From the sequence record OR062945.1: a stretch of 64,000 nt of DNA. The stretch is one strand, 5' to 3'. Below, piece after piece: positions 4,867 to 61,749 of the stretch. Made by a program: the position numbers and the translations under genes. This DNA is from Escherichia phage 308Ecol101PP. The notes under the pieces were generated by a model. It ran no database searches, was not told where the DNA came from, and worked only from the letters and a program-made list of their open reading frames with translations. Position 1 is the stretch's first letter. Every line of letters starts with the position of its first letter.

Positions 4867-4869
4867 GTA

Positions 4870-5448: not shown

Positions 5449-5811
5449 ATGAAATATCACGTATATGCTGATTTTGAAGCAAATCCTTCTAAAGACCCTG
5501 ATTGTCGTTTGATACGCAGACCATTTGATTCAGCAGCTCAAGCATGGGCTTGGATTAAAACTTGTACTCCTTCTTACACTTTCTTTGAAGTGGTAGACGA
5601 TAACGGAGTTCTGCATCCAGAACCTACAGAAACTATTAATTTCCTTCTGTTTGCTGGTTATGACTGTTATCCTCTTGGTGGTATTGACGACCTTGTTGCT
5701 ACAGGAAAAACTGTTGAGGCTCTTCGCGAAATTTATAAAAACGCAGAAGAAAATTTTGACTGGTATCATATTGTTGATGCTCATACCTTTGAAATGGTGG
5801 AACATTCATGA
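5449..5811 (+). CDS. Hypothetical protein
   Basis: SD GGTGAG then ATG 5449 (MKYHVYADFEANPSKDPD...); stop/start overlap with upstream ORF. Confidence 0.6.
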   Translation: MKYHVYADFEANPSKDPDCRLIRRPFDSAAQAWAWIKTCTPSYTFFEVVDDNGVLHPEPTETINFLLFAGYDCYPLGGIDDLVATGKTVEALREIYKNAEENFDWYHIVDAHTFEMVEHS

Positions 5812-6098
5812 TTCTTTATGCTAAAGTATCGTCCATTGAGAATGGATATGAAAGCGATCAACGTGCAGCTAAAGCACTAGTTGATGACTACGGTATTCTG
5901 ACTAACTTTGAGGTTGAAAAGGTTTATATCGACCGTTCATCTTCGCAAGTTAAATTACTCTGTGAAGACGATAAATTTAACACAGTTAACTTTGATTTCT
6001 TTATTGAAACAGAAAAAGGCCCTCTTGAATATGATATTTTCAAGAATCCTTTGAAATTACGTTGCATTGAATATAATTACATTAATATGGTACGGTGA
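5808..6098 (+). CDS. Hypothetical protein
   Basis: ATGA overlap with upstream gene; 96 aa. Confidence 0.6.
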   Translation: MILYAKVSSIENGYESDQRAAKALVDDYGILTNFEVEKVYIDRSSSQVKLLCEDDKFNTVNFDFFIETEKGPLEYDIFKNPLKLRCIEYNYINMVR

Positions 6099-6102
6099 GT
6101 AA

Positions 6103-6618
6103 ATGAATATTTGTTTAGGCAGTACAATTCCTAAGGGTTACGTAATTGATGTCACTACTTGGGAAAATGACGGCGACAACTATAAAACCAAAACATTATT
6201 TGGTGTAGAAGAGCATGAGCTCCAACAGTTTAAATATCTCTTAAAGAAATTTAAGAGCCGTCATTCCAGCACTAAAGCTGAACGTTACTGTGGTAATACA
6301 CTATTCAGTGATTGTTCGCTTTTAATCTATGAATACTTGGTTGAAGGACTGTTCTCAGACCAGCTTTATCCAGAATTCATTAAAAAGGTCTTTGGTATCG
6401 AAGTTGACCTTGGTGACAAATCCGAAGAAGATGAAACACGTGTATTCGACCTATTCTTTGAGAGCGGAGATGAGATATCTCAAGGACTTATTGATATTCT
6501 TGGCTATGCTTCCGAATACTATGATTACGATTTCTTGCGTGTAGTTGAACGTGTTGAATTCGCTTATATTGAAGAAGAAATTGTTTTGCCGACTGTTAAA
6601 ATGATTGATTTGCTTTAA
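6103..6618 (+). CDS. Hypothetical acidic protein
   Basis: SD GGTGAG before ATG; 171 aa. Confidence 0.65.
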   Translation: MNICLGSTIPKGYVIDVTTWENDGDNYKTKTLFGVEEHELQQFKYLLKKFKSRHSSTKAERYCGNTLFSDCSLLIYEYLVEGLFSDQLYPEFIKKVFGIEVDLGDKSEEDETRVFDLFFESGDEISQGLIDILGYASEYYDYDFLRVVERVEFAYIEEEIVLPTVKMIDLL

Positions 6619-8831: not shown

Positions 8832-8860
8832 TGTACAAACGCCAAGGACGGTGTTACTAT
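8832..8860 (+). promoter_or_regulatory. Early promoter (TGTACA -35, GTGTTACTAT -10)
   Basis: 17 nt spacer. Confidence 0.45.
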
Positions 8861-8889: not shown

Positions 8890-9117
8890 ATGGCTACAGT
8901 TAGTATTGATGTCGTTGATTATGAATACACCGAAGAAGTTATTCGCAGCCGTCACCCTGAAGTTCGTATCGATTCAGTCCAAGATTCCAAGTTTTGGACA
9001 ACCGAGCTTAATCTGAGTGGTCCTTATGAAGCTGTTAAGAAGTTCATGGTTGAAGAATACTGCGAAGGCATGCACCCCGAAGACGCCGAGTTTTATGTCA
9101 ATTTGATTAAAAAATAA
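8890..9117 (+). CDS. Hypothetical acidic protein
   Basis: Promoter 8832, SD GAGGAGA; 75 aa. Confidence 0.6.
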   Translation: MATVSIDVVDYEYTEEVIRSRHPEVRIDSVQDSKFWTTELNLSGPYEAVKKFMVEEYCEGMHPEDAEFYVNLIKK

Positions 9118-9125
9118 TTTACAAA

Positions 9126-9161
9126 CTCTTGAGAGCAGAGTATAATGCTCTCGTTGGATAA
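9126..9161 (+). promoter_or_regulatory. Early promoter cassette with IR GAGAGC / GCTCTC around TATAAT
   Basis: TTTACA -35, TATAAT -10 at 9150-9155; near-identical copy at 39400. Confidence 0.6.
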
Positions 9162-16509: not shown

Positions 16510-16564
16510 GTTTACTTCCTCCAAGGGTTTTGATACTATACATTCATCAACTACTTGGAGGAAA
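16510..16564 (+). promoter_or_regulatory. Early promoter cassette; IR pairs an anti-SD segment with the denV SD
   Basis: GTTTAC; TTCCTCCAAG (16517-16526) complementary to CTTGGAGGAA (16555-16564), which holds the SD; -10 TACTAT inside the loop. Confidence 0.6.
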
Positions 16565-19726: not shown

Positions 19727-19777
19727 GTTTACTTCTCCTCTAGTTGTGTTACTATAGACCTGTCAACTAGAGGAGAA
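19727..19777 (+). promoter_or_regulatory. Early promoter stem-loop cassette; 14-bp perfect IR pairing anti-SD with SD
   Basis: GTTTAC; TTCTCCTCTAGTTG / CAACTAGAGGAGAA flanking TGTTACTATAGACCTGT. Confidence 0.65.
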
Positions 19778-19783
19778 ATCAAA

Positions 19784-20242
19784 ATGACTATCAATTCAGA
19801 CGTTTTTATCCGCCGCAATAAACTCCGTCGAATCTTTGAAACGGAGTTCCGCAAAATAAATGCCGGTATAAAAGATGCTGCAAAGTCTCTTGGACTACCA
19901 GGCTTTCATATCAAGTATTCTCAACATCTCTTAGATCGTGCCATCCAGAGAGAAATAGATGAGAACTACGTTTTTGAATTATTTCGTAAAGTAAAAAATC
20001 ATGTTAAAGAAGTTGCAGAATTTTTATCAATGCCGGCACGTCCAGATGTTGATGAAGATTTTGTCGAAGGTGTCGAATACCGTCCAGGCCGTTTAGAAAT
20101 AACTGACGGAAATCTTTGGTTAGGACTTACAGTTTGTCGCGAAAATCCAGCATTCAAAATGAAGACTCTTCAATGCAGAATGGCTATTATTAACAGTAAA
20201 CGACTACCAGGAAAAGCTTCTAAAGCAGTGATTAAAATCTAG
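19784..20242 (+). CDS. regB: RegB-like endoribonuclease (tentative)
   Basis: 152 aa (T4 RegB is 153 aa); lies between denV and tk as regB does in T4; promoter cassette 19727; call rests on size, position and partial recall of the sequence. Confidence 0.55.
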   Translation: MTINSDVFIRRNKLRRIFETEFRKINAGIKDAAKSLGLPGFHIKYSQHLLDRAIQREIDENYVFELFRKVKNHVKEVAEFLSMPARPDVDEDFVEGVEYRPGRLEITDGNLWLGLTVCRENPAFKMKTLQCRMAIINSKRLPGKASKAVIKI

Positions 20243-26789: not shown

Positions 26790-26818
26790 GTGTACATGCT
26801 TTTAGGATATGTTATTAT
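26790..26818 (+). promoter_or_regulatory. Early promoter (GTGTAC, 17 nt spacer, TATTAT)
   Basis: Follows terminator 26742. Confidence 0.5.
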
Positions 26819-26856
26819 AGACCTATCAAAACGAAATGAGTAAATTGGAGAATAAA

Positions 26857-27975: not shown

Positions 27976-28263
27976 ATGGATTTTATGCAAAAAATTAAAG
28001 CCGCAGTAGAACTCTATGCTCATCGTATGGTTAGTTCTACAATGCAATATAGCGAGGAGGTTCGCCAGGACTCTTCCTTGAAAGGAAAAACTAAAGCCTT
28101 AATTACCTTAGATCGTTTGCAAAAGAATGCCATAGAGATGCTCCAGTACGACAAGGCTGTATATAAGAAAGAACAGGAAGAGAAACTTAAATCTGAAAAA
28201 TTACAGAAAATTCCGAAATCGGTTTGGTTCAGTGGAAAAAATACCGAAAAAAGTTTCTTTTAG
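27976..28263 (+). CDS. Hypothetical protein
   Basis: SD AAGAGGA; 95 aa. Confidence 0.55.
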   Translation: MDFMQKIKAAVELYAHRMVSSTMQYSEEVRQDSSLKGKTKALITLDRLQKNAIEMLQYDKAVYKKEQEEKLKSEKLQKIPKSVWFSGKNTEKSFF

Positions 28264-28265
28264 TT

Positions 28266-28300
28266 GTTTACAAGGTCTATAGTTATGTTATTATAGACCT
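28266..28300 (+). promoter_or_regulatory. Early promoter stem-loop cassette
   Basis: GTTTAC; IR AGGTCTATA / TATAGACCT. Confidence 0.6.
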
Positions 28301-28321
28301 ATCAACTACTGGAGGTAAAAC

Positions 28322-28849
28322 ATGAACGCTAAAGATATTTTCAACCTGGTAAATTATAACGACGGTAAATTTAAATCTGAAGCACAAAGCAAGTTCTTTA
28401 ATGACGTTGCTTATGGTAACGAGATTACCGTGGACGGAGGTCAGATTTTCAAATCTCGCTGGAATTGGATTGCTATCATCGATTCAGTTGGAATTGTGGA
28501 AGTCTACAAAAACACTAACAAAAAACGTACATTATTCTGGTCTCGTGAAACTAACGAGCAGTACAAAAAGGATAAAGCATCTCGTTTATCCAAAGTAACC
28601 CAGGAAGATATCGAGTTTATCAAGAAAGATATCGAGATGTACGAAAATTTAATCGCTGAAGACCAGGCAGTACTCGATAAGTTTGATGAAATTAAAGCTT
28701 CTCGTGAAATCCCTGACTTCATGAAAGAAACAGTAAACGAACGATACGCTCTCACTTCAGAACGTATTGCAAACTATACAAAACAGAAAGCAGAACGTAT
28801 TAGTACTCTTCGGAAATTTGAAGAACGTTTAAAGACGGTTCACGCATAA
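28322..28849 (+). CDS. Coiled-coil protein
   Basis: Promoter cassette 28266, SD GGAGG; 175 aa. Confidence 0.65.
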   Translation: MNAKDIFNLVNYNDGKFKSEAQSKFFNDVAYGNEITVDGGQIFKSRWNWIAIIDSVGIVEVYKNTNKKRTLFWSRETNEQYKKDKASRLSKVTQEDIEFIKKDIEMYENLIAEDQAVLDKFDEIKASREIPDFMKETVNERYALTSERIANYTKQKAERISTLRKFEERLKTVHA

Positions 28850-28911
28850 ACGCTTTACCCAAGGACGGGTTATAATGGTTTTGAGTTCCAATTCAATCTG
28901 AGGAAATAGAT

Positions 28912-29907
28912 ATGAGCATTACATCTGATGCGGTAAAACATGAAATTAACGGTTTATGTGCTTCACAGATTAAAGTGTGGTTTAAAGACCATAATGATCG
29001 CAGAGCACTTAATTATGAGCAAATTGCTATCCAAGTTCATCAATTACTGACTAGTAAATTTGATTTTCATATGCCGTCTGAAATTTATACTAATCTACCG
29101 CGAGCGCTTATTAAAGCGTGTAAAGGTTACGGAAAATCAATGGCTGATGGAATCTTCAGCGCGCTGAATAAACTTAACGTTCTGTCGATGATTAACTCTA
29201 ACAACATTCTGCGTAATCTAGGACGTACTGATTTGTTCGGTCGTGAACAGTGTAAAATGCCTTTGAAATGGATTGTTGCTCATCTTAACGAGAACCAAAC
29301 ACGTTTTATGGCCGTATCAGCACGCTTACAAATGGGCCTAGATCGTCAGATGAACTTTAAAACTCATCCACGGTATTCAGGTTCAACAGACTTTTATAAA
29401 TGTGAGCTTCAAAAGGTTGCAGGTAAAACTGTCTTAGTAGTTCGTGTAACGTTTGAAGGACGACGTCAAGGATATTTTGACCTAATCGGCTCTGGTCTTA
29501 AACATTGTGGATTTATTGACGAAGTTGATATTAAGCGAGACGGCATTGGATACCGTATTGGATATGTTTGTACTCTTAAAGAAGAGATTTCAGGACCAGC
29601 ACCAGGACTAAAAGACGTTAGATATAAAGACGAGCTTGTTGAAGAAATAAAAGAAGTTGAATATGATATCAACCAAGAAGATGCTCTTAAAGACCTTATT
29701 GATGAACTAAACCAAGACATTATTCCGGTTCAGAAATTTGAATCAAAACATGCTGAGCAAATCAAATACTTTGAAGCTTTGATTAACGAACTTAATGTAA
29801 CTATTCAACAGACTGATGATGAAATCTCACGATTAGCAGGCTTAAATGGTAAAAATAAAACGGAACGAGCTAATCTTATTCAAGTAGTAAAACTTCTTAA
29901 GGAATGA
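28912..29907 (+). CDS. Hypothetical protein with C-terminal coiled coil (331 aa)
   Basis: SD GAGGAAA; first of three similarly sized genes. Confidence 0.7.
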   Translation: MSITSDAVKHEINGLCASQIKVWFKDHNDRRALNYEQIAIQVHQLLTSKFDFHMPSEIYTNLPRALIKACKGYGKSMADGIFSALNKLNVLSMINSNNILRNLGRTDLFGREQCKMPLKWIVAHLNENQTRFMAVSARLQMGLDRQMNFKTHPRYSGSTDFYKCELQKVAGKTVLVVRVTFEGRRQGYFDLIGSGLKHCGFIDEVDIKRDGIGYRIGYVCTLKEEISGPAPGLKDVRYKDELVEEIKEVEYDINQEDALKDLIDELNQDIIPVQKFESKHAEQIKYFEALINELNVTIQQTDDEISRLAGLNGKNKTERANLIQVVKLLKE

Positions 29908-29936
29908 TGTACAACCAGGGATGGTTGGAGTATAAT
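29908..29936 (+). promoter_or_regulatory. Early promoter (TGTACA, 17 nt spacer with CAACCA/TGGTTG hairpin, TATAAT)
   Basis: Near-identical to promoter at 30903. Confidence 0.55.
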
Positions 29937-29962
29937 AAATTTTTCAACATGAGGAATATAAA

Positions 29963-30898
29963 ATGGCTTCTATTACACGTAGAGAACTTATCAAAGAATT
30001 TACCTCGAACGCATATACCCCAGGTCCTAATCCTATCCGTATGCCTGTAAAGACTCCTGAAGAGATTGAGGAAATCTGTTCATATTATGGGATTACTTCT
30101 CGTAAGTTTACTCAATTTGAATGCGTTACTAACACACCAGTTAAAGAGTTCATTAAAAATGGCGAGTTCAGTCGTTTATTAGCCAAACAGAAACTTCGTA
30201 ATTTTTGTATTGGCGGTGAAGGACAATATTTTGCTAAACAGTTCAGAAATAACCTTAACAATCTGATGGCCATTGCTTCTCGTATTCGTCCTCAAGCAAT
30301 TAACATGAAACATTTGAAATATACTTACGATAAGTTAGAAATCATGGTTATCAGTGAGAACGAGTTCACTCTTACGTATAAACCTAAGAATGATAACGTT
30401 GCTCGTGTATTCCACCAAGCGTTGGAAGTGTTAGGTGATAATATTTACCAGATTAAAGCAATTTATTCTCGTGAGCTTAATATTATCAACCCTATCAAGA
30501 ATAAGGGCCATATCGCTATCCAGGCTCGTGTATCTATTGGTAAAAAGGTTCCTGCGCCATGGTGGCACAAAGACTCTGAATACTATCAAAATCTTAAAAA
30601 GGAAAATGCAACGTTCGAAGCGTCAATTACTGCAACCCCAATTGGCAACGCTGAAGTTCTAGGTGCATATTCTACTGCTCCATCTATATACACTTCACCG
30701 TCGACTAAACTGGAAATCTCTAACGGTCTTCTTCCTGCCGAAGATTACTATTATAATCAAATCAAAGCCACTGTGGACCAACTGTCTGTTGAACTTGACA
30801 AAGCACAAGCTAAGCTTCGTGATGCTCAACAAGTAGTTACCAAGCTCCAGTTGCAGTACTCTAAACTTTTTAACGCAATGAATGCATTAAAATCATAA
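29963..30898 (+). CDS. Hypothetical protein with C-terminal coiled coil (311 aa)
   Basis: Promoter 29908; SD GAGGAA. Confidence 0.7.
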   Translation: MASITRRELIKEFTSNAYTPGPNPIRMPVKTPEEIEEICSYYGITSRKFTQFECVTNTPVKEFIKNGEFSRLLAKQKLRNFCIGGEGQYFAKQFRNNLNNLMAIASRIRPQAINMKHLKYTYDKLEIMVISENEFTLTYKPKNDNVARVFHQALEVLGDNIYQIKAIYSRELNIINPIKNKGHIAIQARVSIGKKVPAPWWHKDSEYYQNLKKENATFEASITATPIGNAEVLGAYSTAPSIYTSPSTKLEISNGLLPAEDYYYNQIKATVDQLSVELDKAQAKLRDAQQVVTKLQLQYSKLFNAMNALKS

Positions 30899-30902
30899 AT
30901 CA

Positions 30903-30932
30903 GTTTACAACCAAGGATGGTTGGAGTATAAT
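30903..30932 (+). promoter_or_regulatory. Early promoter (GTTTAC, spacer hairpin, TATAAT)
   Basis: Near-identical to promoter at 29908. Confidence 0.55.
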
Positions 30933-30960
30933 CTTTCTATCTTAACGAGAGGAAAATATT

Positions 30961-31905
30961 ATGACACGTTCACATTACATTGATTATTTTGCAGGTCTTA
31001 TCGCTAACGTTCATGCCCAACGTGCTTCTGGTTCATTAGGATTTGATGTTCCACACCGAGTTGTAGTAAGTGGTATTCTTCGCGATTTTGGTACATACAC
31101 AGGCCAAGAAAATCATATCTGTAAAGATACTCAGAATGCATATTCTCATTCATTAGGGACACTGCTTCAATGGTTCAAACGTTCTCGTTTATTATCTTCT
31201 ACTGTAGCTCGCGATAACATTAAAAACTTTATGAAGCCGAGCTTTATTAAATCTGTGACATCTAAAACCGATTTGGTTGAATTCACTATTGTTAATGATG
31301 TTAAAAAGACTCATTTGGCTGATTGGTTATCTACCATTCCTGAAACTAAATTTGCTGATAAATTTGCTTGTGAATTCAATAACCAAGTGAATATGCTTTT
31401 TAAACATTCACGTAAATTATTCACAGGTGGCGATGATCGTACAAATACAGTTCATGCTAAAGATTGGGTTACTGCAGTGTTCAAACCAACAGGTAATGGT
31501 ACCGCATCATTATCAATTGATATCCAGGTTCCTTATTACTACTCACGTAATCTCGGTACCATGAAAGCCGAAGAAATTAATAAGCACAACAAAACCATTC
31601 GTTCGCTGTCTTATAAACTTCGCATGATGTTAAGAATCATGGACGTGGTAGAAATGTATGATGAAACCGAAGATAATGGTTCAATGTTATACAGTTCTCG
31701 CATTCAAATTAAGTTGAAGAACCCTAACGAGTATAAGCCTATTAAAGAGCCTAAAGCAGAAAAAGTTGATAACTTAAGAGAAGAACGCGAATATCTCAAA
31801 TCTCGCCTGAAAGAAGTCGAAGCCCAGATTGCAGAACAAACTAAATCATTAAAAGCTCTGAATGCAAAAGCTGATGGTTTACGAAATGCCATTGAGGTTT
31901 TATAA
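30961..31905 (+). CDS. Hypothetical protein with C-terminal coiled coil (314 aa)
   Basis: Promoter 30903; SD GAGAGGAAA. Confidence 0.7.
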   Translation: MTRSHYIDYFAGLIANVHAQRASGSLGFDVPHRVVVSGILRDFGTYTGQENHICKDTQNAYSHSLGTLLQWFKRSRLLSSTVARDNIKNFMKPSFIKSVTSKTDLVEFTIVNDVKKTHLADWLSTIPETKFADKFACEFNNQVNMLFKHSRKLFTGGDDRTNTVHAKDWVTAVFKPTGNGTASLSIDIQVPYYYSRNLGTMKAEEINKHNKTIRSLSYKLRMMLRIMDVVEMYDETEDNGSMLYSSRIQIKLKNPNEYKPIKEPKAEKVDNLREEREYLKSRLKEVEAQIAEQTKSLKALNAKADGLRNAIEVL

Positions 31906-32210
31906 TGAAACTACGTCTTTTAGAGGATATTGATATGAGCACTAATCACGGCTTGGTTAAGTTTATTGACGATAGTTCAAAGATTGAATTTGTTCAGCGA
32001 GATAAAATCCACGGTGAAGAAGAGTTCGTTCCTCCGGCATGGAACGAAATAATGAAAATGGTTGAACGACGTGAAAATGCTGCCAAATCGGCAGCAAAAC
32101 ATCCGTGCCCGGAATGTGGAACTATCCAAGTCCAACTGGTTAACTGGACCACTAATAACTTGAAATTGAAATGCCGTAAATGCTTCCACAAATTTGAGAG
32201 AACATTATAA
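31905..32210 (+). CDS. Small Zn-ribbon-like protein
   Basis: CPECG...CRKC pair of CxxC motifs; TAATG overlap. Confidence 0.55.
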   Translation: MKLRLLEDIDMSTNHGLVKFIDDSSKIEFVQRDKIHGEEEFVPPAWNEIMKMVERRENAAKSAAKHPCPECGTIQVQLVNWTTNNLKLKCRKCFHKFERTL

Positions 32211-32623
32211 TGAGATATAGCCTTCGTTGTTTTATCGCAGCTTTAGTTTTTGCTATTATTCCATTCATTTGGAACAGCCAGAATACTTACATGGAAACTA
32301 AAGTAATTCCTGTGGAGGTAGTGGAATTAATCTCAGGCCAATCTACAGGAAAATATTCTAAATTAGAATTTATTGCAGTCTATAAAGATGAGCAAGGACG
32401 AGTTTTTGACAGGCGTGTATCGCCATCGTTTTATACGCTTCTGAATAAAGGTGATACGATAGCTATAGAAATTCGTGAGATGGATATCAAACAAACTACT
32501 AAAGATAACTTGATTTGGTTCTTTGGTACAGTGTTGTTGGTTTCTATCTGTATCACAGGTTTTATTACATGTATTGTATTTGGCATTGCATATTTAATCG
32601 ATGAAAGGAAAAATAATGTTTAA
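32210..32623 (+). CDS. Membrane protein
   Basis: N- and C-terminal hydrophobic segments. Confidence 0.6.
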   Translation: MRYSLRCFIAALVFAIIPFIWNSQNTYMETKVIPVEVVELISGQSTGKYSKLEFIAVYKDEQGRVFDRRVSPSFYTLLNKGDTIAIEIREMDIKQTTKDNLIWFFGTVLLVSICITGFITCIVFGIAYLIDERKNNV

Positions 32624-39099: not shown

Positions 39100-39138
39100 T
39101 GTACAACGATAGGAAGACGTGTTATTATCTTCCTATCG
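39100..39138 (+). promoter_or_regulatory. Early promoter stem-loop cassette
   Basis: TGTACA; IR CGATAGGAAGA / TCTTCCTATCG flanking GTGTTATTAT. Confidence 0.6.
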
Positions 39139-39159
39139 TCTTAAAATGAGGAAAATATC

Positions 39160-39399
39160 ATGGAACAAGAATTAGACGTTATTACATCGAAAAAACGTCT
39201 TGAAGTCGTAGTGAATGGCTCAACTATTAAGTTTGTATATGACACTTTAACTGATGCTATTACCGTTAGTTGTGGTGGAAAGGCTTTTAGTCTAGATTCT
39301 ACTGAAAACAAATACCCGTTCTATAAAGGTATCTTTGATATGGGTGTTGATATCAGTGTTCGTCAAGCAAACTATTTACATTATCTTATCACGGAATAA
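39160..39399 (+). CDS. Hypothetical protein
   Basis: Promoter cassette 39100; SD GAGGAAAA. Confidence 0.55.
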   Translation: MEQELDVITSKKRLEVVVNGSTIKFVYDTLTDAITVSCGGKAFSLDSTENKYPFYKGIFDMGVDISVRQANYLHYLITE

Positions 39400-39434
39400 T
39401 GCACAAACTCTTGAGAGCAGAGTATAATGCTCTC
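39400..39434 (+). promoter_or_regulatory. Early promoter cassette, duplicate of the 9126 cassette
   Basis: AATGCACAAACTCTTGAGAGCAGAGTATAATGCTCTC, nearly identical over about 40 nt to 9124-9161. Confidence 0.6.
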
Positions 39435-61376: not shown

Positions 61377-61427
61377 GTTTACTTCTCCAGTAGTTGTGTT
61401 ATTATAGACCTATCAACTACTGGAGAA
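61377..61427 (+). promoter_or_regulatory. Early promoter stem-loop cassette; 14-bp perfect IR
   Basis: GTTTAC; TTCTCCAGTAGTTG / CAACTACTGGAGAA; differs from the 19727 copy by compensatory changes. Confidence 0.65.
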
Positions 61428-61431
61428 CAAA

Positions 61432-61749
61432 ATGAAAACCATCGATTGTAAAGCAGAATTTAAGATTTTTTATCACGGTTCAAGTAGTTCAGCTAACATC
61501 GAAAACATGCTTTGTCCTCCTGAGGAAACAGGAGTTCTGTCTGAAACCGGACGTAAGAAAAACTTGGATCGTGTATTCTTTACTGAAGATATCGGTTTAG
61601 CAAAGATTTATGCAGGACGAGCAGCACGCTCTTATGGAGGTGAACCACGTCTCTATCGAGTAATTTCTCCGGTAGACGTAGTTCAAATGAATGATACTAA
61701 AGGTGCTACAGTTTATCACGCTGAATGGGCATTTTGTGAGGAAATATGA
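61432..61749 (+). CDS. Hypothetical protein
   Basis: Promoter cassette 61377; SD GGAGAA. Confidence 0.6.
   Translation: MKTIDCKAEFKIFYHGSSSSANIENMLCPPEETGVLSETGRKKNLDRVFFTEDIGLAKIYAGRAARSYGGEPRLYRVISPVDVVQMNDTKGATVYHAEWAFCEEI

Follow-up and report, generated by a model that had tools for sequence, protein, structure and literature searches.

When a single gene lies between two almost identical promoters, the question arises whether the repeated element can also serve as a point at which that gene is lost or acquired. Such a locus occurs in Escherichia phage 308Ecol101PP (sequence record OR062945.1), in a stretch of 64,000 nucleotides that is called the window here, where the gene nrdC.5 is bracketed by two early-type promoters. 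This part of the genome matches RB69/JS09/APCEc01-type phages of the genus Mosigvirus (T-even, T4-like) at 97-99% identity, and by RB69 annotation the gene order is nrdC.8, nrdC.6, nrdC.5, nrdC.3, nrdC.2, nrdC.7, and nrdC, all on one strand of the nrdC hyperplastic early region. A sequence-only reading of the window had pointed to the two promoters as a direct repeat around the middle one of three similarly sized genes, and had proposed a cassette that phages can acquire or lose when the repeats recombine. Precise gene-absent variants with a single promoter support that proposal, and the locus probably consists of promoters of the PeSL class (promoter-early stem-loop) around an optional nrdC.5 cassette that is lost and regained by recombination.

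Promoter copy 1, a PeSL-type early promoter in front of nrdC.5, occupies positions 29908..29936 on the plus strand (TGTACAACCAGGGATGGTTGGAGTATAAT, 29908-29936), with a -35 hexamer TGTACA (29908-29913), a 17-nt spacer, and a -10 hexamer TATAAT (29931-29936). Copy 2, of the same type, precedes nrdC.3 at 30904..30932 on the plus strand (TTTACAACCAAGGATGGTTGGAGTATAAT, 30904-30932), with TTTACA at 30904-30909, a 17-nt spacer, and TATAAT at 30927-30932. The copies, 29 bp each, agree at 27/29 positions in direct orientation and start 996 bp apart; the near-identical direct repeat stands as first described, as does its start at 29908, and only the second start, earlier placed at 30903, moves by one nucleotide to 30904. 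Copy 1 lies directly 3' of the nrdC.6 TGA stop, copy 2 begins 5 nt past the nrdC.5 TAA, both are followed by a Shine-Dalgarno (SD) sequence and ATG 15-28 nt 3' of the -10, and the counted A+T content of the 25 nt upstream of the two copies is 72% and 76%. Predicted sigma-70-type scores are 11/12 for copy 2 (TTTACA-17-TATAAT) and 10/12 for copy 1 (TGTACA-17-TATAAT), and we infer that both copies act, and are timed, as T-even early (sigma-70) promoters.

At up to three mismatches, neither copy has a match in the 64-kb window other than its partner, and shuffled sequence is expected to contain none. The window contains 15 early-type promoters with 17-nt spacers, and over the resulting 105 pairs the mean identity is 15.2 +/- 2.5 of 29 (spacer mean 5.3/17), compared with 27/29 (spacer 16/17) for the focal pair and 22/29 for the runner-up. 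Because the focal pair so far exceeds all other pairs in the window, its similarity goes beyond the consensus shared by T-even promoters, and the likeness breaks off abruptly at either edge of the 29-mer. A short open reading frame (ORF) at 29904-30050 (MMYNQGWLEYNKF...) is the promoter read as codons, and at position 1877 of the related locus L007 a first-ATG ORF that comes from our own ORF scan rather than from a database annotation begins within the corresponding promoter (MFYIQGWMEYNEF...), and translation of that gene probably starts at an ATG farther downstream.

The distribution of nrdC.5 among relatives was examined with tblastn. NrdC.5 is encoded in 132 phage records, all Mosigvirus-type and with one copy each, and searches of the same type found nrdC.6 in 741 records and nrdC.3 in 653. 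A synthetic deletion junction, made of 400 bp of left flank ending in copy 1 and the 400 bp following copy 2, matched 20 records in a single unbroken 800-bp alignment at 96-98% identity. These records represent 18 distinct phages (F2 and p000v each occur twice), and in one further phage, ESCO47, nrdC.6 and nrdC.3 are likewise adjacent and nrdC.5 is absent, so that about 1/8 of sequenced Mosigvirus relatives do not have the gene. An nrdC.5 invariant across relatives would, by the sequence-only reading, have counted against the cassette idea; these 20 records and ESCO47 show that the gene is not invariant. The sum of 132 present, 20 absent, and ESCO47 is 153, against ~154 records with a Mosigvirus-type nrdC.6, and this tally is consistent with nrdC.5 not having been relocated elsewhere in the absent genomes. 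The natural variants to be looked for had included duplications as well as losses; losses were found, and no tandem duplication of the cassette occurs among the 132 gene-present records.

The junctions themselves are uniform. All 9/9 gene-absent loci that were fetched read ...GGAATGA, then TGTACAACCAAGGATGGTTGGAGTATAAT, then one of five leader variants (ctttc, gaatc, gaatt, gaacc, or cattc) followed by tatcttaac..., and then nrdC.3; they join the left context of copy 1 and the right context of copy 2 through a single promoter, with all breakpoints inside the repeat. The unit missing from gene-absent relatives is 996 bp long and corresponds to 29937..30932 on the plus strand (the nrdC.5 leader, nrdC.5, and one promoter copy), with edges defined only to within the repeat, as the crossover may lie anywhere in the shared part.

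Present and absent alleles are interleaved rather than separated by lineage. On the right flank, present and absent genomes share each of the leader haplotypes ctttc, gaatc, and gaatt, and neighbour-joining trees of ~1 kb per flank intermingle absent with present alleles on both sides. On the left flank, G2469 (absent) and APCEc01 (present) have 3 differences in ~995 positions, and on the right flank AV110 (absent) and moha (present) have 3 differences in ~1000; the classification Mosigvirus mar005p1 is common to G2469 and to the gene-present APCEc01, p000y, and moha. All four gametes with presence/absence are found at 70/80 informative sites on the left and 98/125 on the right. This interleaving fits repeated events at the repeat, free recombination of the flanks, or both.

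The nrdC.6-nrdC.3 interval is a variable slot of 0, 1, or 2 genes, with none in ESCO47 and an extra nrdC.4 in T4. A gene of the DUF7235 family, to which NrdC.5 belongs, lies immediately 3' of nrdC.6 in Mosigvirus and in T4 alike (nrdC-mobD early region), and because T4 also has such a gene in this place, nrdC.5 is old in the slot and its absence is most simply a loss; whether a given event was a loss or a gain is a matter that we infer. ESCO47 differs in a second respect, as its NrdC.6 (L002 2459-3436) is only 68% identical in protein to that of the window, yet the promoter upstream of it and nrdC.3 downstream match the window at about 96-99% identity, as if one allele had been replaced by another between the intergenic promoter elements.

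Each promoter copy has a hairpin in its spacer. In copy 1 this is 29912..29927 on the plus strand (CAACCA-GGGA-TGGTTG; minimum free energy (MFE) -7.8 kcal/mol, z = -2.2), and in copy 2 it is 30908..30923 on the plus strand (CAACCA-AGGA-TGGTTG, with GGAG directly after; MFE -6.9 kcal/mol). A 6-bp stem with a 4-nt loop between the -35 and -10 is the MFE structure at 6/6 folded sites, at -6.8 to -10.5 kcal/mol. The loop is AGGA in 10/11 aligned sequences, and the exception is window copy 1, where an A to G change gives GGGA and the relatives have AGGA. Related promoters, found in T4 before nrdC.7, nrdC.4, and nrdC.3, in Mosigvirus before nrdC.6, before motB, and at window position 8832, hold the loop and the closing CA/TG pairs, and their distal pairs change compensatorily. 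In an alignment of 11 sequences centred on the loop, which were hand-chosen, loop-aligned, and evolutionarily related, 87.9% of cells are paired compared with 64.7% in shuffles (0/500), both partners have changed in 4/6 stem pairs, and covariation scores 0.53 against at most 0.14 in slid controls. Rfam gave no match at E <= 1 in window 28000-32500. A translation start of the form 'AAGG + ATG' inside the hairpin was considered and rejected, as the ATG would follow the SD-like bases without a gap. The related promoter-like element before nrdC.6 (28852..28876, plus strand) reads GCTTTA-N13-TATAAT with an AGGA hairpin core ACCC-AAGGAC-GGGT, and its spacing resembles what we take to be that of the MotA-box middle promoters of T4.

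Joint selection on promoter function and RNA processing might keep such an element near-identical at several loci. The loop leaves GGA unpaired, the next base lies in the closing pair, and GGAG follows directly; an unpaired GGA with a constrained fourth base is a context reported as favourable for cleavage by the T4-type endoribonuclease RegB (PMC3014915). The hairpin may thus have a function as an RNA signal when early transcripts read through it, subject to RegB-type processing, beyond any part it has as a recombination linker, a reading that we regard as doubtful. If it were true, the identity maintained by this joint selection would incidentally leave accessory genes between copies permanently excisable.

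A route of loss and regain can be proposed. Each promoter fills the gap that separates the stop codon of a gene from the ribosome-binding site of the gene after it, and one copy would drive nrdC.5 and the other nrdC.3. A crossover within the ~27 shared bases would excise the 996-bp unit, that is nrdC.5 with one promoter copy, presumably through the homologous recombination system of the phage or by replication slippage. Such a crossover is feasible because direct repeats of ~27 identical bases lie 996 bp apart in a T4-type phage, a group with highly active recombination and replication machinery, and no dedicated recombinase would be needed because homology patches well under 50 bp suffice for recombination in T4 (Singer et al. 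1982, Kumagai 1993, and Wu 1991, as cited in PMC2839356 and PMC9391042). One intact promoter would stay before nrdC.3, leaving downstream expression undisturbed, and the gene could be re-acquired through the same element or through flank crossovers during co-infection. An anti-defence benefit on some hosts would be balanced against pressure on genome size from headful packaging, and whether nrdC.5 is kept or dropped probably depends on the hosts met and on that pressure.

Several points weigh against an nrdC.5 cassette that is lost and regained through the promoters. The events are known here from genome end states, not from recombination events or junction reads, and the reciprocal product of unequal crossing-over, a tandem duplication, does not occur among the 132 gene-present records. 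The interleaving of alleles may reflect one old event reshuffled by recombination in the flanks instead of repeated events at the repeat, and insertion of the gene at a single promoter would give an identical pattern. Promoter activity at both copies is a prediction; the hairpin is only modestly more stable than shuffles (z = -1.2 to -2.2), has no U-tract, and coincides with no called intrinsic terminator or terminator-like site at either repeat copy. Finally, the window NrdC.5 is only 24% identical to T4 NrdC.5, and its function may differ.

One rival explanation is an insertion in the opposite direction, in which a single promoter was ancestral in Mosigvirus and nrdC.5 arrived at the nrdC.3 promoter as a promoter-plus-gene module (e.g. 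a PeSL mini-circle), duplicating the promoter. The junction structure is symmetric, and integration yields the same picture as excision. T4, unlike Mosigvirus, has no promoter between nrdC.6 and nrdC.5, and identities between Mosigvirus and T4 proteins of 24% for NrdC.5, 57% for NrdC.3, and 83% for NrdC.8 would fit replacement by a foreign allele. However, NrdC.6 is about equally divergent (29%), so fast evolution accounts for the low identity of NrdC.5, the DUF7235 gene directly follows nrdC.6 in both genera, and records with the gene far outnumber those that lack it (132 versus about 20), all of which makes such an insertion unlikely. Another rival is artefact or coincidence. The gene-absent genomes could be assembly collapses, or the identity of the two copies could be the T-even early-promoter consensus with no role in rearrangement, and it is true that this consensus is long and that the window has many promoter repeat families. 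Yet 1 kb of unique sequence between 29-bp repeats is not a structure that assemblers collapse, the 18 distinct phages without the gene were sequenced from several laboratories and countries, the spacers agree at 16/17 positions compared with a typical 5.3/17, and the breakpoints all fall within the repeat. Both the artefact and the consensus-only explanation were rejected on these grounds, and together we give them next to no credence.

A third possibility is that the repeat is the relic of a tandem duplication of gene and promoter, with three genes that are diverged paralogs and a repeat that is a by-product and no linker. The lengths of the three proteins (331, 311, and 314 aa) are indeed similar, as the sequence-only reading had it, and NrdC.3, NrdC.4, and NrdC.5 are alike in size and in their C-terminal helices. 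That reading had also implied a related trio in which each gene ends in a coiled coil; a heptad-register test of the C-termini supports the coiled coil for NrdC.5 (z = 4.0) and NrdC.3 (z = 2.3) and not clearly for NrdC.6 (z = -0.4). Duplication may have occurred in this slot in T4, where NrdC.4 (L003 4439-5440) and NrdC.3 (5495-6421) match with a BLASTP E of 8e-5 and an hhalign probability of 73% (E = 3e-5 over 149 columns), which suggests remote homologs and an old tandem duplication. Among NrdC.6, NrdC.5, and NrdC.3, by contrast, BLASTP found no mutual similarity (best E = 0.24), nor did hhalign, with shallow profiles for which the fetched loci supplied the alignments (E 0.037-0.093, probability about 1%), and paralogy of the three genes was rejected as undetectable. 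Proteins so diverged beside an undiverged 29-mer with sharp edges, identical at 27/29 positions, would require separate conservation or homogenisation of the promoters; moreover, the same promoter occurs ~42 kb away before an unrelated gene, and the precise absence alleles would be left unexplained. A duplication relic is accordingly very improbable, and loss and regain of nrdC.5 by recombination between the two promoters is the explanation that we prefer.

The cargo of the cassette is an intact ORF of 311 aa at 29963..30898 on the plus strand, named nrdC.5 after RB69, and the repeats bracket exactly the one gene that had been proposed. Its product matches Pfam PF23882 (DUF7235) over the full length (E = 1.5e-114, 383 bits, gathering cut-off 30), as does T4 NrdC.5 with the same family (E = 5.3e-126), and has a long heptad helix at its C-terminus. 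As Srikant et al. 2022 (PMC9391042) showed, nrdC.5 enables T4 to plate again on cells that carry dsr1, a sirtuin defence gene. Since the window protein and this Dsr1-counteracting T4 protein are members of one family, the Mosigvirus cargo is a probable anti-defence gene, and the window NrdC.5 may itself have anti-Dsr1 activity. An AlphaFold model from a 19-sequence DUF7235 alignment has a mean predicted local distance difference test (pLDDT) score of 41.6, with the C-terminal helix, residues 258-310, as its only usable part. A single-sequence homolog search returned relatives at >=84% identity only; an alignment-based search added the T4-type subfamily and found nothing beyond T-even phages save a few records labelled bacterial. 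The linker between the globular part and the C-terminal helix (window 30621-30740) is variable in length, giving forms of 276, 309-311, 315, and 319 aa, and EP32a (L004 1927-2757) keeps nrdC.5 with a linker 35 aa shorter by in-frame deletion. A protein from a 167-kb T-even contig, P0076, is a natural in-frame chimera of a T4-type NrdC.5 middle and the C-terminal two-thirds of NrdC.3, fused at a short ..VN.. microhomology with nrdC.4 deleted.

The flanking genes, both of unknown function, are nrdC.6 on the left (331 aa, 28912..29907, plus strand, PHROG 2257) and nrdC.3 on the right (314 aa, 30961..31905, plus strand, PHROG 1435), the latter retaining a promoter after cassette loss. Many GenBank phage records label nrdC.3 through nrdC.10 as 'thioredoxin'. 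Pfam found no thioredoxin domain in the five proteins that were scanned (nrdC.3,.5,.6,.8, and.10), and the labels have apparently spread from the nrdC gene names.

Copies of the same element were also found at other places. In RB69 and IMG/VR contigs, the same promoter with its ~14 nt leader precedes motB.1, downstream of dexA, in direct orientation and ~42 kb from the nrdC copies; it is identical to the nrdC.3 promoter including the ~14 nt leader. This dexA/motB.1 copy was exposed by an exact-match scan of IMG/VR for the promoter core, which returned 4 stretches only. A related copy 560 bp beyond it means that motB.1 is bracketed too (8372 and 8932 in the RB69 record, L025; 1327 and 1876 in L007; also L008). 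Other cases of REARRANGEMENTS at the same element are those of moha, EP32a, the motB.1 promoter, and the ESCO47 promoter. In moha (L022 1399-1700), nrdC.6 and nrdC.5 are separated by an insert in which a hydrophobic ORF of 66 aa comes first, followed by 27 bp left over from the 3' end of nrdC.5 and then by a TTTACA-type promoter copy; we read this insert as the trace that an insertion or duplication left at the element. The single promoter of ESCO47 (CAACCA-AGGA-CGGATG) has one broken stem pair and looks like a chimera of the 5' arm and 3' arm of the nrdC-type and motB.1-type subtypes.

Further promoter repeats are present in the window. A second family (ATGTTATTATAGACCTATC), at 26810-26835 and 28285-28310, brackets nrdC.10 and nrdC.9, and in RB69 (L001) three copies of the ATGTTATTATAGACCTATC family lie at about 1215, 1500, and 2830, two of them flanking the small RB69ORF102c; this family looks like another candidate cassette. 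A 40-nt promoter-like repeat (AATAAT..ACAAACTCTTGAGAGCAGAGTATAATGCTCTC) at 9113-9152 and 39395-39434 is 95% identical over copies 30 kb apart and has a stem that encloses the -10. The repeat families D1-D5 (e.g. at 4869, 5201, 11924, 13483, 24096, and 62894) are dispersed promoter/leader repeats of 41-64 nt in 5-9 copies each, typically of the form GTTTACA..GATAGGACTATGTTATAGTAGTCCTATC with a 10-bp stem around the -10, and PeSL-like elements are abundant window-wide. Many early-type promoters have long inverted repeats with the 5' arm in the spacer and the 3' arm over the downstream SD (e.g. TCTCCTCTAGTTG...CAACTAGAGGAGA, 13 bp), as at 19728-19790, 61378-61440, 39100-39140, 16511-16560, 9118-9152, and 28267-28300. 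The SD would then be sequestered in read-through transcripts and free in locally started ones.

The idea of recombination between such promoters is itself already published as PeSL-mediated modular shuffling (PMC2839356, PMC4122927), and the value of this locus is chiefly that of a ready-made natural test case, not a new principle, and of a well-documented addition to PeSL cassettes. Support for the PeSL model has so far come mainly from a single laboratory, by inverse PCR and by comparing genomes in pairs, and the locus adds a natural example at population scale, in which ~150 Mosigvirus genomes segregate for a one-gene cassette with breakpoints inside a 29-bp promoter repeat. Matched natural pairs are available, e.g. 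APCEc01 (gene present) and G2469 (gene absent), and the case connects the arrangement of promoter repeats with a quick turnover, by gain and loss, of anti-defence genes, and hence with host range. Neither PMC2839356 nor PMC4122927, nor any of the three listed among the 4 papers that a full-text search for nrdC.4/5/6/DUF7235 matched, describes the nrdC.5 cassette of Mosigvirus or its polymorphism, and the text of PMC2839356 makes no mention of RB69.

Among known systems, the closest are the PeSLs that Arbiol et al. 2010 (PMC2839356) described in RB49 and phi1, which flank ORFans in hyperplastic regions and through which genes are inserted, deleted, or replaced. There, pairs of PeSLs around single ORFs recombine into mini-circles that were detected by inverse PCR, and the stem-loop lies most often between the -35 and -10 or overlaps the -10. 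As in those phages, the Mosigvirus element combines a stop codon, an A/T-rich stretch, -35 and -10 hexamers, a stem-loop, an SD, and an ATG in one intergenic element, its pairs flank single accessory ORFs, and close relatives show precise presence or absence of the ORF with a chimeric element remaining. The genus is different, and the stem contains A/T and has a near-invariant AGGA loop, unlike the polyG/polyC stem of RB49/phi1, whose terminator activity and mini-circles were shown experimentally; the Mosigvirus element is known from its sequence. Comeau et al. 2014 (PMC4122927) also described PeSLs in T4 and PST, with the consensus TTTACW-N17-TAYWAT; full or degraded copies adjoin indels in PST at about 43-51 kb, a stretch that by T4 coordinates would be the nrdC hyperplastic region. 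The focal hexamers and spacing fit this consensus, and all sequence-level features of a PeSL are present (promoter, stem-loop, gene-boundary position, and a hyperplastic site with one chimeric element left); the stem-loop lies inside the spacer here and was drawn just upstream of the promoter in PST/T4.

The history of nrdC.5 in T4 offers a second comparison. Under pressure on genome size, T4 loses nrdC.5 by spontaneous laboratory deletions between short homologies (PMC9391042). In both phages the gene is an early accessory gene of the DUF7235 family, next to nrdC.6 and lost, in Mosigvirus probably, via short homologies, and in T4 it is dispensable in laboratory hosts. The T4 deletions are multi-kilobase and use microhomologies (amplification boundaries are typically 6-10 bp), compared with the proposed excision of one gene between 27-bp promoter repeats here. 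The repeats in the earlier T4 work (Singer et al. 1982, Kumagai 1993, and Wu 1991) are arbitrary and lie inside genes, whereas the Mosigvirus repeat is a regulatory element, so that the product would still be correctly expressed, and the Mosigvirus cassette is documented across ~150 genomes in place of the single pair of RB49 and phi1.

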